Origin: Candidatus Caldarchaeales archaeon
Lineage (GTDB): Archaea > Thermoproteota > Nitrososphaeria_A > Caldarchaeales > Calditenuaceae
Assembly: GCA_039630085.1 (NCBI GenBank)
Contig: JBCNVM010000005.1
Span: forward strand, 1 to 64,000
DNA length: 64,000 nucleotides
Direction: 5' to 3'
Part shown: positions 15,820 to 60,200 of the stretch, in pieces
Layout of the letters: the number at the start of each line of letters is the position of its first letter
Position numbering within the stretch: the stretch's first letter is position 1
Notes under the pieces: model-generated
Told to the model about the DNA's origin: nothing
What the model saw: the letters and a program-made list of their open reading frames with translations, nothing else
Database searches by the model: none
Position numbers and translations under genes: made by a program

Positions 15820-16566
15820 GTGCGGAGCGTGAGGCTCCCGGAGCGGCCCGAGGACCTTCTGCCGTCGGTGAGGGCGGCCCTCTGCAAAGAGCTGCTCGAG
15901 AGGTACGGGCTCCGTAAAGTGCAGGTCGCCTCGGTCCTCGGAGTCAGGCCCGCGACGGTCACCCACTACCTCAGCGGGAAGAGGGGCGCCCTCTGGCTCG
16001 AGGTCATCGGGTCGGACGAGGAGGCCCGTAGGATGATATCGGAGGCGGCGGAGTCGATGGCGAGGAGGCACAGGTTAGGCGTGGCCGTCGACGCCTCGAG
16101 GGAGGTGTCCGAGCTCGCGAACAGGCTCTACTCGGTCATCGCTGGCGGACGCGCTGCCGGAGGCGCCGGAGGCCTGAGCGAGGAGGCGCTGAGCTCCATC
16201 GCGGAGAGGATCAGGTTCGAGGAGGCGGTCGCGAGGAGGGTGCTCGAGGTGATGAACAGGGTGAGGAACGTAGCAGTCCAGCAGGTCCTGAGGCAGATAG
16301 CCGTCGACAGCCTAAGGCACGCCGAGATCCTCACGCTCGTCTCTAGGGGCGTGGGGGCCGACGATGAGTCCCTGAAGTCGGACCTGGTTCTGCTGGAGGA
16401 GCTGATGAAGTACGAGTCGGAGGCCGAGGAGAAGGATCTCTCTGAGCTCGCCAGGACTGTGGGCAACCCGGCGCTCGCGGCCCTGCTCATCTCGATCGAC
16501 CACGACGAGCGGAAGCACGTCGCGATGCTCGAGGTCATCCTCGGATCGGGGCGCGACGAAGTTTGA
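15820..16566 (+). CDS. HTH transcription regulator (COG2522-like) fused to a ferritin/rubrerythrin-like domain
   Basis: N-terminal 'LLPSVRAAL...VASVLGV.PATVTHYLSGKRG'; C-terminal paired E...DxxxH motifs 'DSLRH' and 'DERKH'. Confidence 0.78.
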   Translation: MRSVRLPERPEDLLPSVRAALCKELLERYGLRKVQVASVLGVRPATVTHYLSGKRGALWLEVIGSDEEARRMISEAAESMARRHRLGVAVDASREVSELANRLYSVIAGGRAAGGAGGLSEEALSSIAERIRFEEAVARRVLEVMNRVRNVAVQQVLRQIAVDSLRHAEILTLVSRGVGADDESLKSDLVLLEELMKYESEAEEKDLSELARTVGNPALAALLISIDHDERKHVAMLEVILGSGRDEV

Positions 16567-16676
16567 GGGCGTTGATTTAACGTCGTGAATTCCAGCCTAA
16601 CGCGACGGAGTTTTGGGGATCTGCAGGAATTCCGGATCCCCTCCTCCAAACGATGAATTGTCTTCGTGAAAGGTTA

Positions 16677-16695
16677 ATTATAACGACGTTATAAT
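16677..16695. promoter_or_regulatory. Perfect palindrome ATTATAACG-A-CGTTATAAT overlapping the phnD-like promoter (candidate operator)
   Basis: 9-bp inverted repeat ending 9 bp before the GTG start; preceded by GAAAGG-TTAATTA BRE/TATA-like sequence. Confidence 0.72.
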
Positions 16696-16704
16696 CGAGC
16701 AGGC

Positions 16705-17634
16705 GTGAAACGCTGGCACCTCTTCGGGATCCTCGCGATAGGTGCGCTCGCGTTCGTCGCATTCTGGACTCTCTGGGACACGCAGACAAGAGAGGAGCCG
16801 ATCGTGATCGCGATCCAGCCGACCCAGAACCCTGCCGCAATTCTCGAGAGGGCGCAGCAGCTGAAGGAGTACCTGGCAGGAAAGCTCGGCAGACCGGTCG
16901 AGGTCTACGTCCCGACCAGCTACTCGGCGGTGATCGAGGGGCTGAGGTACGGCAACGTCCACGCGGCTATGATGGGTTCCTGGCCCTCTGCGATCGCGGT
17001 GAGGGTCGCGGACGCGGAGGTCTACCTCGCGGAGGTGAGGACGGTGGCGATCGACGGCAGGAGGGTCGAGGGCACGTTCTACTTCTCCTACTGGATCGTT
17101 AGGCAGGACTCGCCTTACGCCGGGCTCGGGGACCTCAGGGGGGAGAGGGTCTGCTTCCCTAGCCCCATCTCATCCTCGGGTTACCTAGCTCCGCTGGCGA
17201 GGATGGTCGAGCTCGGTCTCCTCACGCGGAGGGACGACAAGCCTGTTGACCCGAAGGAGTTCTTCTCCGAGGTCTACTTCGGCGGCGGTTACCAGCAGTG
17301 CTACGAGGCCCTTATGGCGGGGAACGTGGACGTCACCGTGACTGCGGGCGACGTCGCCTACGACCTCTACCAGAAGGTAATGGCGACGACCAAGGTGATC
17401 GAGCAGCAGGGACCGCTGCCGTCCCACACGCTTGTCGTCTCGAGGAGGCTGGACCCGCGGACTAGGGAGCTCTTAGTCTCGGCCTTCGAGGAGCTCGGTA
17501 GGGAGGAGCACAGGGACCTCATGAGGAGGCTGGTCTCCGGGCTCTTCGTCGGGTGGGAGAGGAAGGGCTCGGCGGATCACCTCGCATCCCTGCAAAGGTT
17601 TATCGAGCTGACGGGGCTCGGGTACGACGCCTGA
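16705..17634 (+). CDS. phnD: PhnD/PtxB-family ABC substrate-binding protein
   Basis: N-terminal TM anchor, 'TSYSAVIEGL', 'YFSYWIV...SPY', 'SSSGYLAP'. Confidence 0.85.
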   Translation: MKRWHLFGILAIGALAFVAFWTLWDTQTREEPIVIAIQPTQNPAAILERAQQLKEYLAGKLGRPVEVYVPTSYSAVIEGLRYGNVHAAMMGSWPSAIAVRVADAEVYLAEVRTVAIDGRRVEGTFYFSYWIVRQDSPYAGLGDLRGERVCFPSPISSSGYLAPLARMVELGLLTRRDDKPVDPKEFFSEVYFGGGYQQCYEALMAGNVDVTVTAGDVAYDLYQKVMATTKVIEQQGPLPSHTLVVSRRLDPRTRELLVSAFEELGREEHRDLMRRLVSGLFVGWERKGSADHLASLQRFIELTGLGYDA

Positions 17635-17644
17635 GGGACCCCCG

Positions 17645-18352
17645 TTGAGGATATCGCTGCGGGACGTGAGCTTCGCCTACAGGCGCGGGAGACCGGTCCT
17701 CAGCTCCGTGAGCCTCGACATCGAGTCGGGAGAGGTCCTGATGGTTCTGGGGAGGAGCGGCGTCGGGAAGACCACGCTCCTCAAGCTCGCGGCAGGGCTC
17801 CTGAGGCCCCAGTCCGGTTCGGTCGTGTACGAGGGCCTCCAGGCCGACGGGAAGGGGAGCCGGGCGGTGGCCTACGTCCCGCAGGCGATCGGGATCGTCG
17901 AGAACATCACGGTCCTCGAGAACGCGCTCCTCGGGGCCCTCGGCAGGCTCTCGTTCTTCTCGCAGGTCGTCGGGTCGTTCCCCGAGGAAACGGTCTCACG
18001 GGCGAGGGAGGTCTGCGAGCTGTTGGGCCTAGGGGATCACGTCCACGTCAAGGCGAAGGAGCTGAGCGGCGGGCAGAAGCAGAGGGTCGCGATCGCGAGG
18101 GCGCTGGTGCAGGGCGCGAGGATCGTCCTCGCCGACGAGTTCGTCTCCCAGCTCGACCCCCTGACGGCGCTGGAGGTGCTGGAGCTGACCAGGGACCTTA
18201 GGAAGGAAGGGATCGGGTTCGCGATCACCACGCACGACGTGCACCTCGTCCCGAAGTTCGGCGACAAGGTCGCGGTGATCAGGGACGGCCGGATCGTCCT
18301 TCATAGGGACGCCTCGAGCGCGTCCGTCGAGGAGGTCCTGAGCGTGTTTTGA
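17645..18352 (+). CDS. phnC: PhnC-like ABC ATPase
   Basis: Walker A GRSGVGKT, 'LSGGQKQRVAIARAL', 'LADE..SQLDP', 'ENALLG.LG'. Confidence 0.88.
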   Translation: MRISLRDVSFAYRRGRPVLSSVSLDIESGEVLMVLGRSGVGKTTLLKLAAGLLRPQSGSVVYEGLQADGKGSRAVAYVPQAIGIVENITVLENALLGALGRLSFFSQVVGSFPEETVSRAREVCELLGLGDHVHVKAKELSGGQKQRVAIARALVQGARIVLADEFVSQLDPLTALEVLELTRDLRKEGIGFAITTHDVHLVPKFGDKVAVIRDGRIVLHRDASSASVEEVLSVF

Positions 18353-19116
18353 GGACCGGTTGGCGGACGGGCCCCAACACGGACCTGCTGATCCTCTTGG
18401 GGGTCACGCTGGTCCTGCTCTGGCACTTCGGGGCCTTCAGCCCTAGGACGATCTCCAAGCTCCCGAACCTCGGCCTCTTCCTCGCGAACGCGTTCCCTCC
18501 CGACCCGGAGCCCCTCCCGGTCCTCTTGGTCAGCATGCTCGAGACCGTCCTGATTGCGCTCGCAGGGACGGCCCTCGCGGTCATGGTCTCTGTGCCGCTG
18601 GCGTCGCTGAGCAGCAGGTCCCTCTTCTCACCGCCGGTCACCGGCGTCTTCAGGTTCGTTCTCTCGGTGATCAGGACGATACCCGCGATCCTCTGGGCGC
18701 TCCTCTTCGTCATAACGGTCGGGTTCGGGCCGCTAGCGGGCGTCCTTGGAACCGCGATGTACTCCATCGGGTATCTGGGGAAGCTCCTCTACGAGGCCTT
18801 CGACGCCGTCGACAGGGACGTGCTGGACTCGGTCAGGATCTCGGGCGCGGGCAAGCTGGCGTTAATGAGGTACGTCGTGATCCCCGAGTCCGCGAACTAC
18901 ATCATCAGCCAAGCGATCTTCATGTTCGAGTACAACGTGAGGGCCTCGACGATCCTCGGCCTGGTCGGTGCCGGAGGCATCGGCTTCTACATCCTCTCGT
19001 ACGTCCAGGTCCTAGACTACAGGTCCCTCACGACGGCACTGATCGTGGTCCTGGCCTTCGTAGTGGCGATAGACGTCGCGAGCGGCAGACTGAGGTCGAG
19101 GTTCCTGCCCTCCTGA
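18349..19116 (+). CDS. phnE: PhnE-like ABC permease
   Basis: 'RTIPAILWALLF..VGFGP.AG', 'FEYNVRASTILGLVGAGGIG'. Confidence 0.9.
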   Translation: MRTGWRTGPNTDLLILLGVTLVLLWHFGAFSPRTISKLPNLGLFLANAFPPDPEPLPVLLVSMLETVLIALAGTALAVMVSVPLASLSSRSLFSPPVTGVFRFVLSVIRTIPAILWALLFVITVGFGPLAGVLGTAMYSIGYLGKLLYEAFDAVDRDVLDSVRISGAGKLALMRYVVIPESANYIISQAIFMFEYNVRASTILGLVGAGGIGFYILSYVQVLDYRSLTTALIVVLAFVVAIDVASGRLRSRFLPS

Positions 19117-19136: not shown

Positions 19137-19763
19137 TTAGAACCCCTTCGGCCTGATCGGCCTCCTCCTAGAGTGGAAGCCTCCCGCGTCCTTGAACCTC
19201 TCCTCGGCCCAGACGTTGCCCCGCTCGTGGTAGCCCCCGTTCTCCGGCCTCTCCCAGAACCCGTCCTCGTACTCCTCGATGAACTCGATCTCGTTCAGCC
19301 ACTTCGCGCTCTTCCAGAGGTAGAGGTGGGGGATGAAGGGCCTCGCGGGGAACCCGTTCTCGAGGGGGATGGGCCTCCCGTCGATCCTAAGGGCCACGAT
19401 CGCGTCCTCGTCGAGCGCGTCCTCTATCGGCACGGGCGCGGAGTAACCGTCGAGGCACCTGAACATCACCCACCTGGCATCGGGCTTGACGCCCGCGAGC
19501 TCCGCGAGGTGCCTGATCTGTATTCCCTCCCACTCGACGTCCTTCACCGACCACTTGGTTACGCAGTGGGCGTCCCTGACGTACCTCCTCATCGGCATCC
19601 TGAGCAGCTCTTCGTAGGTGAAGGAGAGCGGCCTCTCGACGAGCCCGGTCACAGAGAGCCTGTAGCTGTTCAGGTCTACCCTCGGTATGCCGAGCGCCGC
19701 ATAGACGATGAAGTCCCTGACGTACCTCTGGCCCGGGGGGAGCCTCCCTTGGACCTGCTCCAT
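19137..19763 (-). CDS. Sulfite-oxidase-family molybdopterin oxidoreductase (YuiH-like)
   Basis: 'RLPPGQ', 'HCVTKWS', '[16 protein letters not shown]', 'GFWE..GYH..G'; the true start is ATG 19763, the C-terminal part of the 734-aa ORF. Confidence 0.9.
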
Positions 19764-19865
19764 GCTCCCCTTCGCCGCGTGCCCCGAGAGATATCGGTTT
19801 GTCCTGGCCGCATATCCGATGCCATCGCCCCTCAAATAAATTAACACCGGCGACGCCCTATTGGC

Positions 19866-21650
19866 ATGGATGCGCAGTACATCAGGGGGCTGGTGGAGGC
19901 CGCGCAGGGCAAGCGGAGGCTCACGCTCCTCCTGAAGGGTGCACAGGTCCTCAACGTCTACTCGGGCGAGGTGGAGGAGGCCGACGTCGGGATTTACGGC
20001 GACAGGGTCGTCTACGTGGGGAGGGACGCGCCGAGCGCGGAGACCGTGCTGAACGTCGAGGGCGTGATCGTGCCGGGCTTCATCGACACCCACCTTCACA
20101 TCGAGAGCAGCATGGTCACCCCCGCCAGGTTCGCGGAGGCCGTCCTCCCGCACGGGACGACGACGGTCTGCGCGGATCCTCACGAGATCGCGAACGTCCT
20201 CGGGATCGAGGGCGTCAGGATGATGCTCGAGAACTCGAGGGGCCTGCCCATGAGGATCACGTACTTCGTGCCGACCTGCGTCCCCGAGTCCGACGCGGTC
20301 ACGGCCGGGGCCGAAATCACCCCGGAGGACGTCGAGAGGGCCCTCGACTGGGAGGGGATAGTCGGGCTGGGCGAGGTGATGGACTTCGAGTCGGTCCTCG
20401 CGGGCCGCGAGAAGTTCATGCGGATCCTCGAGATAGGCTGGAGGAGGAGGTGCGTGATAGACGGCCACTGCGTCCTCCTTTCGGGCGCGAGGCTGAACGC
20501 GTACGTCGCGACGGGCCCCGAGGCGGACCACGAGAACTTCACCGTCGAGTCCGCGGTCGAGAAGCTCAGGAGGGGGATGTACGTCAAGCTCAGGGGACCC
20601 TACATCCTTGACCCGTCGAGGTTCGTGAGGGCGATCGGTTCGCTTCCGAGCCCCTGGGACCGGGTGATCCTGGTGACGGACGACGTGATGCCTGACACGC
20701 TCGCGGAGAGGGGCCATCTGGACTTCGTTGTGAGGTCGATGATCGAAGCCGGCATGGACGAGGTCGAGGCGGTGCGGAGCGTCACGCTGAGGCCCGCGAC
20801 CCACATGAGGATGTTCGAGCTGGGAGCGGTCTCGCCGGGCAAGGTCGCCGACTTGGTCGTCCTCGGGAGCCTGAGGAGGGTCGACGCGAGGATGGTGCTC
20901 TTCGGGGGCAGGGTCGTCGCGAGGGACGGGAGGCTCGTCGTGGACCTCCCCGAGAGGAAGTTCGACAGGAGGGCCCTCGGGACCGTCAAGGTGGGGGAAC
21001 TGAGGCCCGAGGACTTCGAGTTCAGGCCGCCGGTGAGCGACGGCAGGCTGGTCCTGAACGTGATCGAGTTCAGGAGGCCCGACCCCTCGGTCGGGGACGT
21101 CTCGAGGGCGTTCCTCGAGATGATCGTGACGAAGAGGTCGACGGCGGAGGTCGAGGTGAGGGGAGGCAGGGCGATGCTCGGAGACGTGGCGCTGATGGTC
21201 GTCGTGGAAAGGCACAGGCGCACCGGGAAGAGGGGCTACGGGTTCGTGAAGGGCTTCATGGAGAGGGGCGCGATCGCGACGACCGTCGCCCACGACTCCC
21301 ACAACCTCGCGGTCATAGGGACCGACCCGAGGGACATGCACCTCGCGGCGACCGAGGTCGTCAAGTCCGAGGGGGGACTGGTCGCGGTCCTCAACGGCGA
21401 GGTCCTATCGAGGATAGAGCTCCCCATCGCGGGGCTGATGTCAGAGGAGCCGGTGCGGGTCATGGCTGAGAAGATGAAGGGGTTCAGGAAGGCGCTGGAG
21501 AGGCTCGGAGCCATCGACCACCCCTACATGCCGATCGTCTCGCTCCTCACGCTGTCCGTCATCCCCGAGGCCCGCGTCACCGACAAGGGGCTCTTCGACG
21601 TCAACGCGCAGAGGTTCGTGGACCCGGTAGCGGCCGTCGTCCCCGCGTGA
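19866..21650 (+). CDS. ade: Adenine deaminase
   Basis: '[13 protein letters not shown]', 'DPHEIANV.G', 'GLGEVM', 'DGH', 'DHE', 'VAHDSHN', 'LPIAGLMS', 'LSVIPE'. Confidence 0.92.
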
Positions 21651-59397: not shown

Positions 59398-59439
59398 GCC
59401 CCCCTGGTCTGGGCTGCACAGACTTTACGCGGTTTAAAC

Positions 59440-59465
59440 TATATCAGATGGTATAACGCCGTTAT
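59440..59465. promoter_or_regulatory. Overlapping palindromes (TATATCAGATGGTATA; TATAACGCCGTTAT) between the TATA box and start of rbkR (candidate operator)
   Basis: TTTAAA at 59433-59438 followed by inverted repeats ending 6 bp before the ATG. Confidence 0.62.
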
Positions 59466-59471
59466 GGATGC

Positions 59472-60200
59472 ATGGCCCTGAACCTAGTGGCCATCAAGGC
59501 CCTCCTGAACCTCTACGCCCAGAACGGGTTCTCCAGCAGCGTCAAGGTCTCAACTCCCGCGCTCGCGAAGGCGCTCGGGACCTCGCAGCAGTCGGCCTCA
59601 AGGATCCTAATCAGGCTCGAGAAGGAGGGGCTGATCGAGAGGCGGTCCGTGGGCAGGATGACGTACGTGAGGGTGACGGAGCTCGGCCTCAACAGGCTGC
59701 TGGACCTATATACTGACCTGAGGGTCGTGATCGAAAGGCCGATGGACTTCGTGCTCGAGGGCAGGGTCTTCACGGGCTTCGGCGAGGGCGGTTATTACGT
59801 CTCGCTGCCGCAATACAGGCAGCAGTTCAGGGAGAAGCTGGGGTTCGACCCCTACCCGGGGACGCTGAACGTCAGGCTCCTCTCGGTCGACTCGATACAC
59901 AACAGGAGGCTCCTCAGTAGGATCGCCGACGTCAGGATCGAGGGCTTCAGGAACGGCAACAGGACCTACGGCGGCCTCAAGGCGATCAGCGGGACCTTCA
60001 ACGACTCCGAGCTATGCGCGGTGCTGTTCATCGAGCGGACTCACTACGGCGACGACGTCGTGGAGATCATCTCGCCGGTCTACCTCAGGGGGAGGTTCGG
60101 CCTGAAGGACGGCGACAAGGTCAGGGTCCGGGTCACGATACCCAAGGAGAAGGTCGAGCGCGAGCAGGTCGGCGGCGAGCTCGTGAGCGTCGGTCCCTGA
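59472..60200 (+). CDS. ribK: CTP-dependent riboflavin kinase with N-terminal wHTH (RbkR)
   Basis: 'LAKALGTSQQSASR.L..LE..G' HTH; 'G.V.TG.GEG.YY', 'PYPGTLNV', 'RTHY...VEII'. Confidence 0.93.
   Translation: MALNLVAIKALLNLYAQNGFSSSVKVSTPALAKALGTSQQSASRILIRLEKEGLIERRSVGRMTYVRVTELGLNRLLDLYTDLRVVIERPMDFVLEGRVFTGFGEGGYYVSLPQYRQQFREKLGFDPYPGTLNVRLLSVDSIHNRRLLSRIADVRIEGFRNGNRTYGGLKAISGTFNDSELCAVLFIERTHYGDDVVEIISPVYLRGRFGLKDGDKVRVRVTIPKEKVEREQVGGELVSVGP

Follow-up and report, generated by a model that had tools for sequence, protein, structure and literature searches.

The window, by which we mean the whole 64,000-nucleotide stretch of DNA analysed here (contig C45 of the 1.41-Mb genome G000; 64% G+C; 89.9% complete), comes from a hot-spring archaeon of the order Caldarchaeales ('Aigarchaeota') and carries the same short palindrome at two loci. 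One is an operon for a transporter of the ATP-binding cassette (ABC) type with a PhnD-fold binding protein, and the other is rbkR, the gene for the bifunctional regulator and riboflavin kinase RbkR. A preliminary description of the window had suggested that the palindrome may be the operator of RbkR and the transporter an importer of flavin mononucleotide (FMN) or another phosphorylated flavin. Our analysis points elsewhere. The palindrome stands before suf, cysteine desulfurase, rhodanese, cysteine synthase and FTR1 genes, a set of targets which argues that TATAAC-N3-GTTATA is likely to be the operator of an iron–sulfur (Fe-S) cluster homeostasis regulon of the Caldarchaeales and not that of RbkR. 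Within this reading, we infer the parts played by a candidate regulator, P0002, and by the transporter.

Upstream of the transporter operon, the 14-mer TATAACGACGTTAT (16679-16692) lies within a perfect 19-bp palindrome, ATTATAACGACGTTATAAT, the end of which is 9 nucleotides (nt) from the GTG start codon (16705) of the binding-protein gene. Its counterpart TATAACGCCGTTAT (59452-59465) lies 6 nt upstream of the ATG of rbkR (59472), and the central base is the sole difference between the two. The sequences and coordinates of both 14-mers, and of a weaker copy close to the transporter, proved to be as first described; the sites occur far above chance and are kept in relatives. The palindrome pattern gives four strand-matches in the window, compared with 0.07 expected from 100 shuffles. 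Genome-wide, seven sites have two or fewer mismatches to TATAACGNCGTTATA, whereas 100 control palindromes, made by permuting the half-sites, averaged 0.54 sites each and never exceeded 6. TAAC-N3-GTTA occurs seven times in the genome, and the other spacings from 0 to 15 each occur between zero and four times. Three relatives, with binding proteins 75–89% identical, retain the main palindrome, the adjoining upstream block and the weaker copy in a spacer that has otherwise diverged. The weaker copy reads TTTAACGCCGTGAA, TTTAACGTCGTGAA and TTTAACACGGTTAA in the three closest relatives, and its pattern, TTAAC-N3-GTGAA, has just three matches in the genome. Site enrichment and conservation thus bear out the earlier proposal of a shared, operator-like palindrome in a repressor position and, judged from sequence, it very probably places the transporter and rbkR under common control.

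The wider comparison drew on the 76 genomes of the order, in which the window's own family (f1) contributes 19 genomes in four genera (g1 to g4, the window belonging to g1), f2 is the sister family, and f4 includes genera g12 and g13; where genomes are related they are not independent, and the counts across relatives given below include such kin. Footprinting in relatives, as had been proposed, shows the motif to be conserved in orthologous promoters: the site precedes rbkR in 19/19 f1 genomes, and its core precedes the transporter in all 14 f1 genomes that have one (14/14), as well as at 14 of the 21 archaeal loci in a wider scan. It is also found upstream of sufB in 19/19 f1 genomes and in 10/10 of the f2 genomes examined. 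In G000, the site lies 4 nt upstream of sufB (C65:58967), 12–13 nt upstream of a cysteine-synthase-like gene divergent to a gene of the SagB/nitroreductase family (C4:12200), 12 nt upstream of the P0002 gene (C12:56600), and upstream of genes for a TtrB-like 4Fe-4S subunit (C1:25825) and a Liv-type binding protein (C1:57132). Both f2 genomes checked have it before the transporter, and in that family it also precedes genes for a SufC-like ATPase, FTR1 and a rhodanese. By genome, the SufC-like ATPase genes bearing the site are those of G029, G030, G034 and G044, the rhodanese gene is that of G034, and the FTR1 genes are those of G003 and G034. In f4, G044 has the site at the head of a sufC-sufB-like pair and before a DsrE-like gene, and G062 has it before a class-V aminotransferase gene of the cysteine desulfurase type. 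A genome-wide scan had been suggested in which hits at rib genes would support a flavin regulon; the targets are instead suf, iron and sulfur genes, with no rib genes among them in the order, and the further sites in G000 outside the window include no flavin gene among their targets.

Some of these loci have features of their own. The sufB gene is interrupted by an intein at L065 (G003) and L139/L140 (G010) and also in G009, G016, G024, G025, G028 and G033, with open frames of 810–1168 amino acids (aa); the G003 frame shows LAGLIDADG and intein-splicing domains. A 132-aa open reading frame divergent from sufB looks like a wrong-frame artefact and was discarded. In genus g4 (L111, G018), an electron-transfer-flavoprotein alpha gene precedes the transporter gene in the same orientation, and the palindrome separates the two.

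At rbkR and sufB, the site follows a TATA-like box and precedes the start codon, with 4–6 nt between its end and the ATG. Such a placement, or one over the TATA box as at the transporter, suggests that a bound protein would block initiation and act as a repressor. Leaders would be short or absent, and a bound dimer would block either assembly of the pre-initiation complex or recruitment of the polymerase. The core of the proposed regulon, common to two families, would consist of sufB, the SufC-like ATPase and the PhnD-fold ABC importer, with rbkR, cysteine synthase, cysteine desulfurase, rhodanese, the DsrE-like protein, FTR1 and the regulator's own gene as lineage-specific members. The features at the two window loci, together with the candidate regulator, are collected in Table 1. 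The transporter operon is convergent with a gene on the minus strand (19137-21341) for a 734-aa protein with a C-terminal molybdopterin oxidoreductase domain of the sulfite-oxidase type.

Table 1. Operator copies, genes of the two palindrome-bearing loci of the window, and the candidate regulator gene elsewhere in the genome.
Feature	Position	Strand	Details
Main operator, perfect 19-bp palindrome ATTATAACGACGTTATAAT	16677-16695	.	core TATAAC-N3-GTTATA; overlaps TATA-like stretch
Operator copy TATAACGCCGTTATG	59452-59466	.	between TATA-like stretch tttaaactatat (59433-59444) and rbkR ATG
Weaker copy TTTAACGTCGTGAA	16576-16589	.	~100 nt upstream of main site, directly after P0001 stop
P0001, HTH_3 regulator with C-terminal rubrerythrin/ferritin-like domain	15820-16566	+	paralogue of P0002
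Substrate-binding protein gene	16705-17634	+	309 aa; N-terminal membrane anchor; PF12974, E 5e-47
ABC ATPase gene, PhnC-like	17645-18352	+	score under equivalog cut-off
ABC permease gene, PhnE type	18349-19116	+	PF00528; TIGR01097, 228.9 vs cut-off 216.7 bits
rbkR, winged-HTH and CTP-dependent riboflavin kinase	59472-60200	+	assigned by domain search
P0002, Xre-type HTH protein	G000:C12:56207-56587		127 aa; orthologues 123-131 aa

We consider first the protein named in the preliminary description. It is highly improbable, in our estimate, that RbkR binds the palindrome, autoregulates through it and, in an organism auxotrophic for riboflavin, governs the uptake of FMN or another phosphorylated flavin by a PhnDCE-like system. 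The constant presence of the site before rbkR in f1 does favour such a scheme. So does the literature in part: the study of RbkR regulons by Rodionova et al. 2017 (PMC5397151) describes RbkR autoregulation as common and gives the operator of Thermoplasma acidophilum RbkR as TTACT-N8-AGTAA, in which Gln39 and Gln40 read an 'AC' in the solved complex, and the half-site seen here also holds this 'AC'. The order moreover appears to depend on imported flavin. RibB was found in 1/76 of its genomes and RibH in 0/19 f1 genomes, which points to riboflavin auxotrophy order-wide; without riboflavin synthesis flavin must be imported, and a test of the RbkR regulon by rib-gene targets cannot succeed. For Calditenuis, riboflavin auxotrophy has already been published, with a putative riboflavin transporter in Table 1 of the paper (PMC4681859), and the listing of such a transporter counts against the scheme.

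The recognition helix of RbkR and the sequence that it is expected to read also argue against RbkR as the binder. The rbkR gene was found in 73/76 genomes of the order, and the helix motif SQQS(A/T) is invariant across them, with or without the palindrome. In the window protein the helix reads SQQSASRI, exactly as in T. acidophilum RbkR (3cta/5trd, E 1e-38), the half-sites of which stand 7 bp further apart. TAAC-N3-GTTA is not the TTAC-N10-GTAA motif expected for an SQQS-type helix, which is the consensus for the Thermoplasmata and Thaumarchaeota in PMC5397151. Exact matches to TTAC-N10-GTAA are unenriched in the genome, where the only two lie in G+C-rich sequence covered by open reading frames. 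However, a site of the TTACT-N8-AGTA type, TTACTCAATATTGAGTAG in the gene's orientation, was found at C23:26205-26222, about 72 nt upstream of a RibU-like gene (C23:25644-26150). The palindromic core of 16 bp occurs nowhere else in the genome, and a counterpart, TTACTCAGATCTGAGTAG, takes the corresponding position in both of the other Calditenuis genomes recovered (2/2; L379, L380), where the flanks have diverged. We regard TTACTCAATATTGAGTAG as probably the true RbkR operator. The genome encodes two RibU-like S-components of the energy-coupling factor (ECF) type, the best solved relatives of which are RibU (E 2e-7 and 7e-4), and the palindrome is absent upstream of both genes.

The distribution of the site gives the same answer. 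Although the palindrome is present in f2, it occurs there at 0/5 rbkR promoters. Outside f1, the site was found before rbkR in five genomes, from two genera of another family, and is degenerate in two of the five; it was not seen before rbkR in 15 other outgroup genomes examined. Genera g14 and g15 were covered for rbkR promoters and genome-wide counts only, and in g14 RbkR is present while the palindrome is unenriched. Given a regulon of Fe-S rather than flavin genes, a site in f2 that bypasses rbkR, a Thermoplasma-type helix and a canonical site before a RibU-like gene, the identification of the palindrome as the RbkR operator is not upheld. The last two of these observations argue that the palindrome needs another protein: rbkR would be one of its targets, and RbkR is probably not its binder. 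Two further observations were made around the RibU-like genes. These are divergent and flank a small ArsR-like gene with a helix-turn-helix (HTH) domain (C23:25644-27281), and an inverted repeat, GAAAATGATC...GATCATTTTC, lies upstream of the second.

A better candidate for the binding protein is P0002. The tail of this small protein displays a C-x2-H-x10-C-x2-C motif that is conserved in 19 f1 orthologues and might serve to bind a metal or an Fe-S cluster. Full-length orthologues are present in 19/19 f1 and 17/18 f2 genomes and, within f4, in 2/3 genomes of g12 and 8/8 of g13; the lineages with full-length P0002 are those in which the site was seen, and elsewhere there are weak or partial relatives only. 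Profile searches gave only weak matches, to Pfam HTH_3 and ParB-HTH, and none in NCBIfam, and the public names of the protein are 'predicted transcriptional regulator' or 'hypothetical'. The promoter of P0002 itself carries the site in 7/7 genomes of g1, and short P0002 relatives in G037 and G062 also have site-bearing promoters; the gene of the G062 relative stands directly upstream of the site-bearing cysteine desulfurase gene. Whether proteins of the P0002 type bind the palindrome is, on this evidence, an evenly balanced question. The genome also encodes a ThiR-like paralogue of P0002 with HTH and ThiN domains (C7:19.0-19.9 kb; L095:901-1866, minus strand), the N-terminal region of which, together with its Cys motif, shows homology to P0002 (E 3e-9, 35% identity, residues 3–123).

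The preliminary description had offered, as an alternative to RbkR, the HTH-ferritin protein encoded next to the transporter, here P0001. This came close, since the candidate that we favour is one of its paralogues, but P0001 itself is a much less likely binder. P0001 adjoins the transporter operon in four genomes of the genus, and in G034 its orthologue, which matches Pfam Rubrerythrin, is divergent to the palindrome-bearing FTR1 gene; its ferritin-like domain could sense iron. The P0001 type was found in g1 and g3, whereas the same search returned none in g2 and g4, where sufB and rbkR keep the site; with this type in only part of the family, it is therefore not the general regulator. The recognition helix of P0001 is also unlike that of P0002, and P0001 may bind the weaker TTTAAC-N3-GTGAA variant instead. 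A variant of the TTTAACGGTGTGAA type co-occurs with P0001-type genes both in G034 and in the window (16576-16589), and the weaker variant may be P0001's own site. On balance, we think it very unlikely that P0001 is the protein that reads the main palindrome. At L190 (G034), the interval between the FTR1 and P0001-like genes contains a perfect 26-bp palindrome, CTTTGTGAAATAATTATTTCACAAAG, beside the TTTAACGGTGTGAA variant and the main palindrome.

Control by an archaeal iron repressor of the DtxR family, suggested by analogy with the bacterial loci described below, would be scarcely more probable. Two DtxR-family genes are present in G000, the content of the regulon fits iron control, and the 9-1-9 architecture of the palindrome has what we take to be a likeness to DtxR/IdeR boxes. 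Against this, the only TTAGG-N5-CCTAA palindrome of the genome (C9:13869-13883) lies directly upstream of the ATG of one of the two, a 145-aa DtxR/MntR-like gene that is probably autoregulated, which suggests a different specificity. Genus g14, too, has DtxR-family genes with the palindrome unenriched (2 vs 4 control matches; 0 vs 2).

We turn now to the transporter, for which the annotation suggests a phosphorus compound. The binding protein scores above the cut-off of the subfamily model TIGR01098 (146 vs 112) but far below that of the PhnD equivalog TIGR03431 (129 vs 261 bits). Its best solved relative is PtxB (E 2e-12), and the characterised proteins PtxB, HtxB, AioX, ArrX and PhnD are all distant relatives (E 2e-12 to 1e-6). 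The ligand motif of the PhnD/PtxB family is STS-H (PMC5700983). Alignment to PtxB shows that SSS (158–160) is kept in the window protein while Tyr196 occupies the position of the His, so that the SSSG and GGGY motifs noted earlier are confirmed, the Tyr of GGGY being the residue that aligns with the PtxB His. The hinge Tyr and the Ser triad of the anion site are kept, and across an alignment of the subfamily Y126, Y129, W130, Y196, D216 and the His of PSH (239–241) are invariant. No carbon–phosphorus (C-P) lyase is encoded within ~3 kb, as previously stated, and the genome, at 89.9% completeness, yielded no PhnJ (PF06007); no search for ptxD was made.

The subfamily is widespread, with members in the Caldarchaeales, Chloroflexota, Acidobacteriota, Binatia and Deltaproteobacteria; a scan for it returned 80 loci at 45–54% identity, of which 59 are bacterial. 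The commonest neighbour other than transporter genes is a DtxR-family repressor (domains Fe_dep_repress, Fe_dep_repr_C and FeoA in two representatives checked). Its gene is divergently upstream at 33/59 bacterial loci, within 250 bp at 28 of these, and adjacent at 1/21 archaeal loci. The palindromes upstream of the bacterial transporter genes include TTAGG-N4-CCTAA (8 loci), which presumably resembles DtxR/IdeR boxes, and AACTTT-N-AAGTT (7 loci). In f1, FTR1 is found only in g2 (3/3), which is also the only genus without the transporter (0/3). NRAMP, FTR1 and full-length FeoB were not found in G000; matches to FeoB_N are weak, of the GTPase type and present in 14/14 control genomes as well, and were rejected. 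The DtxR neighbours, the alternation with FTR1 and the lack of NRAMP, FTR1 and full-length FeoB argue that the system is tied to metal homeostasis. We put the chance of such a role at about even, with iron as the most likely metal, perhaps bound together with an anion; phosphonate would then be an unlikely substrate and a flavin a very unlikely one.

Three other classes of substrate were weighed. The annotated role, import of an oxyanion or ester of phosphorus (phosphite, phosphonate or an organophosphate), with only an incidental place in the regulon, is unlikely but carries the weight of the profiles: PF12974 and TIGR01098 are above their cut-offs, the permease passes the PhnE equivalog, and the anion site retains its Ser triad and two Tyr. 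It fits less well with the replacement of the STS-H His by Tyr, the shortfall at the PhnD equivalog and the absence of PhnJ, or with an Fe-S operator on the archaeal side, DtxR neighbours on the bacterial side and no pho-type context seen. Less probable still is a sulfur oxyanion, thiosulfate or sulfite, feeding Fe-S assembly; cysteine synthase, rhodanese, the DsrE-like protein and cysteine desulfurase are in the regulon, and the protein family binds oxyanions, but the bacterial DtxR neighbours and the FTR1 alternation point to a metal. The claim that the transporter imports FMN or another flavin finds the least favour, and we would be surprised to see it confirmed. The regulon is one of Fe-S genes, the bacterial homologues are paired with DtxR repressors, and neither an FMN riboswitch nor any other Rfam family was found upstream of the two Chloroflexota homologues tested.

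Taken together, these observations lead us to favour an operator of Fe-S homeostasis that would be read as follows. Holo P0002, loaded with an Fe-S cluster or a metal, would repress its targets, and loss of the cofactor would release suf, the iron and sulfur supply genes and the riboflavin kinase. A cofactor-loaded repressor that leaves the DNA when Fe-S clusters or iron are scarce would account for the content of the regulon, while RbkR itself most likely acts at the separate canonical site before the RibU-like gene. A fuller proposal is offered only tentatively, and we hold it to be somewhat less probable than its negation. In it, the PhnD-fold subfamily with SSS-Tyr and PSH, annotated everywhere as phosphonate transport, would be an unrecognised uptake system for ferric iron or another metal, controlled by DtxR in bacteria and, in the Caldarchaeales, by a new type of archaeal Fe-S-sensing repressor, a small Xre-HTH protein with a Cys3His tail that is related to the DNA-binding domain of ThiR. 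This repressor would have suf under its control as well and would link riboflavin kinase to the Fe-S status of the cell.

Several points weigh against this reading, some touching the regulator and others the transporter. The FTR1 genes of G001 and G002 have no clear site. The P0002 promoter carries the site in 0/12 cases in g2 to g4, and among 80 wider Nitrososphaeria loci 77 P0002 promoters are without it, the only three with it being Calditenuis loci (ammonia-oxidising Nitrososphaeria, too, have orthologues of P0002); with no site at most P0002 promoters, autoregulation is therefore not general. Few of the lineages behind the phyletic match between P0002 and the site are independent, and the other two paralogues (P0001 and the ThiR-like HTH-ThiN protein) or an unrelated regulator are possible candidates as well. 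As to the transporter, 26/59 bacterial loci have no DtxR neighbour, and the alternation of FTR1 and transporter is a single evolutionary event. An attempt to match Tyr196 and His241 to transferrin ligands by sequence failed: the whole protein gives weak transferrin matches (E 3e-4) in which no single stretch is significant, and those of the C-terminal fragment are noise. The kept Ser triad and Tyr residues make a phosphorus or sulfur oxyanion a possible substrate, and GpxB, a PhnD-family protein, reportedly binds a phosphate ester, so that an ester such as FMN is chemically not absurd.

With a site, a target list and a candidate protein in hand, an archaeal Fe-S homeostasis regulon becomes directly testable. 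At the flavin genes of this riboflavin auxotroph there would be two layers of control, RbkR at ribU and the Fe-S operator at rbkR, the second of which suggests that the supply of FMN and flavin adenine dinucleotide (FAD) is coupled to Fe-S demand. Many annotations of 'phosphonate ABC transporter' in environmental bacteria and archaea may also be wrong, and misannotation of this kind would affect metagenomic inference on phosphonate and phosphite cycling and on iron acquisition.

Among known systems, IscR, SufR and RirA are the bacterial Fe-S and iron regulators of suf. By analogy, the system described here would share with them an operator at the suf promoter, a regulon that joins Fe-S assembly to iron and sulfur supply, and a candidate set of Cys/His ligands. 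P0002 differs in being of the Xre type, with no match to the Rrf2 or ArsR families, and the system in being archaeal, with the site placed after the TATA box and ahead of the start codon. The thiamine regulator of archaea, ThiR, combines an HTH with a ThiN domain; the HTH region of the ThiR-like protein of G000 is homologous to P0002, but P0002 lacks ThiN, ends after its Cys/His tail and has other targets. DtxR, IdeR and TroR control metal ABC importers (Mnt, Sit, Tro), the usual binding protein of which is of the TroA/ZnuA type. The same divergent repressor layout is seen at the 33/59 bacterial loci above, with a binding protein of the PhnD fold and not the TroA/ZnuA type. A literature search over a limited collection returned no archaeal suf operator or regulator of the kind seen here, and nothing linking PhnD-type transporters to DtxR or iron.

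With PhnD, PtxB, HtxB and AioX, as treated in PMC5700983, the transporter shares the PF12974 fold family, a PhnE-type permease, the Ser triad and the hinge Tyr; it differs in the Tyr at the STS-H His, the invariant PSH, the metal and Fe-S context, and the lack of any C-P lyase found. The comparison with the RbkR regulon of PMC5397151 is likewise one of partial likeness. The same bifunctional regulator/kinase is present here in a riboflavin auxotroph like Thermoplasma, and the TTACT-N8-AGTA site TTACTCAATATTGAGTAG fits the published consensus, but the palindrome differs from it in spacing, in its targets and in its presence in f2 away from rbkR. The RbkR regulons given in that paper include only RibU and the RibT transporter of the major facilitator superfamily (MFS), with no ABC transporter. 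The system is thus ordinary in kind, an operator with its regulon; what is new is the set of genes in that regulon, the protein proposed to read it and a transporter of the phosphonate type that has apparently been put to another use.

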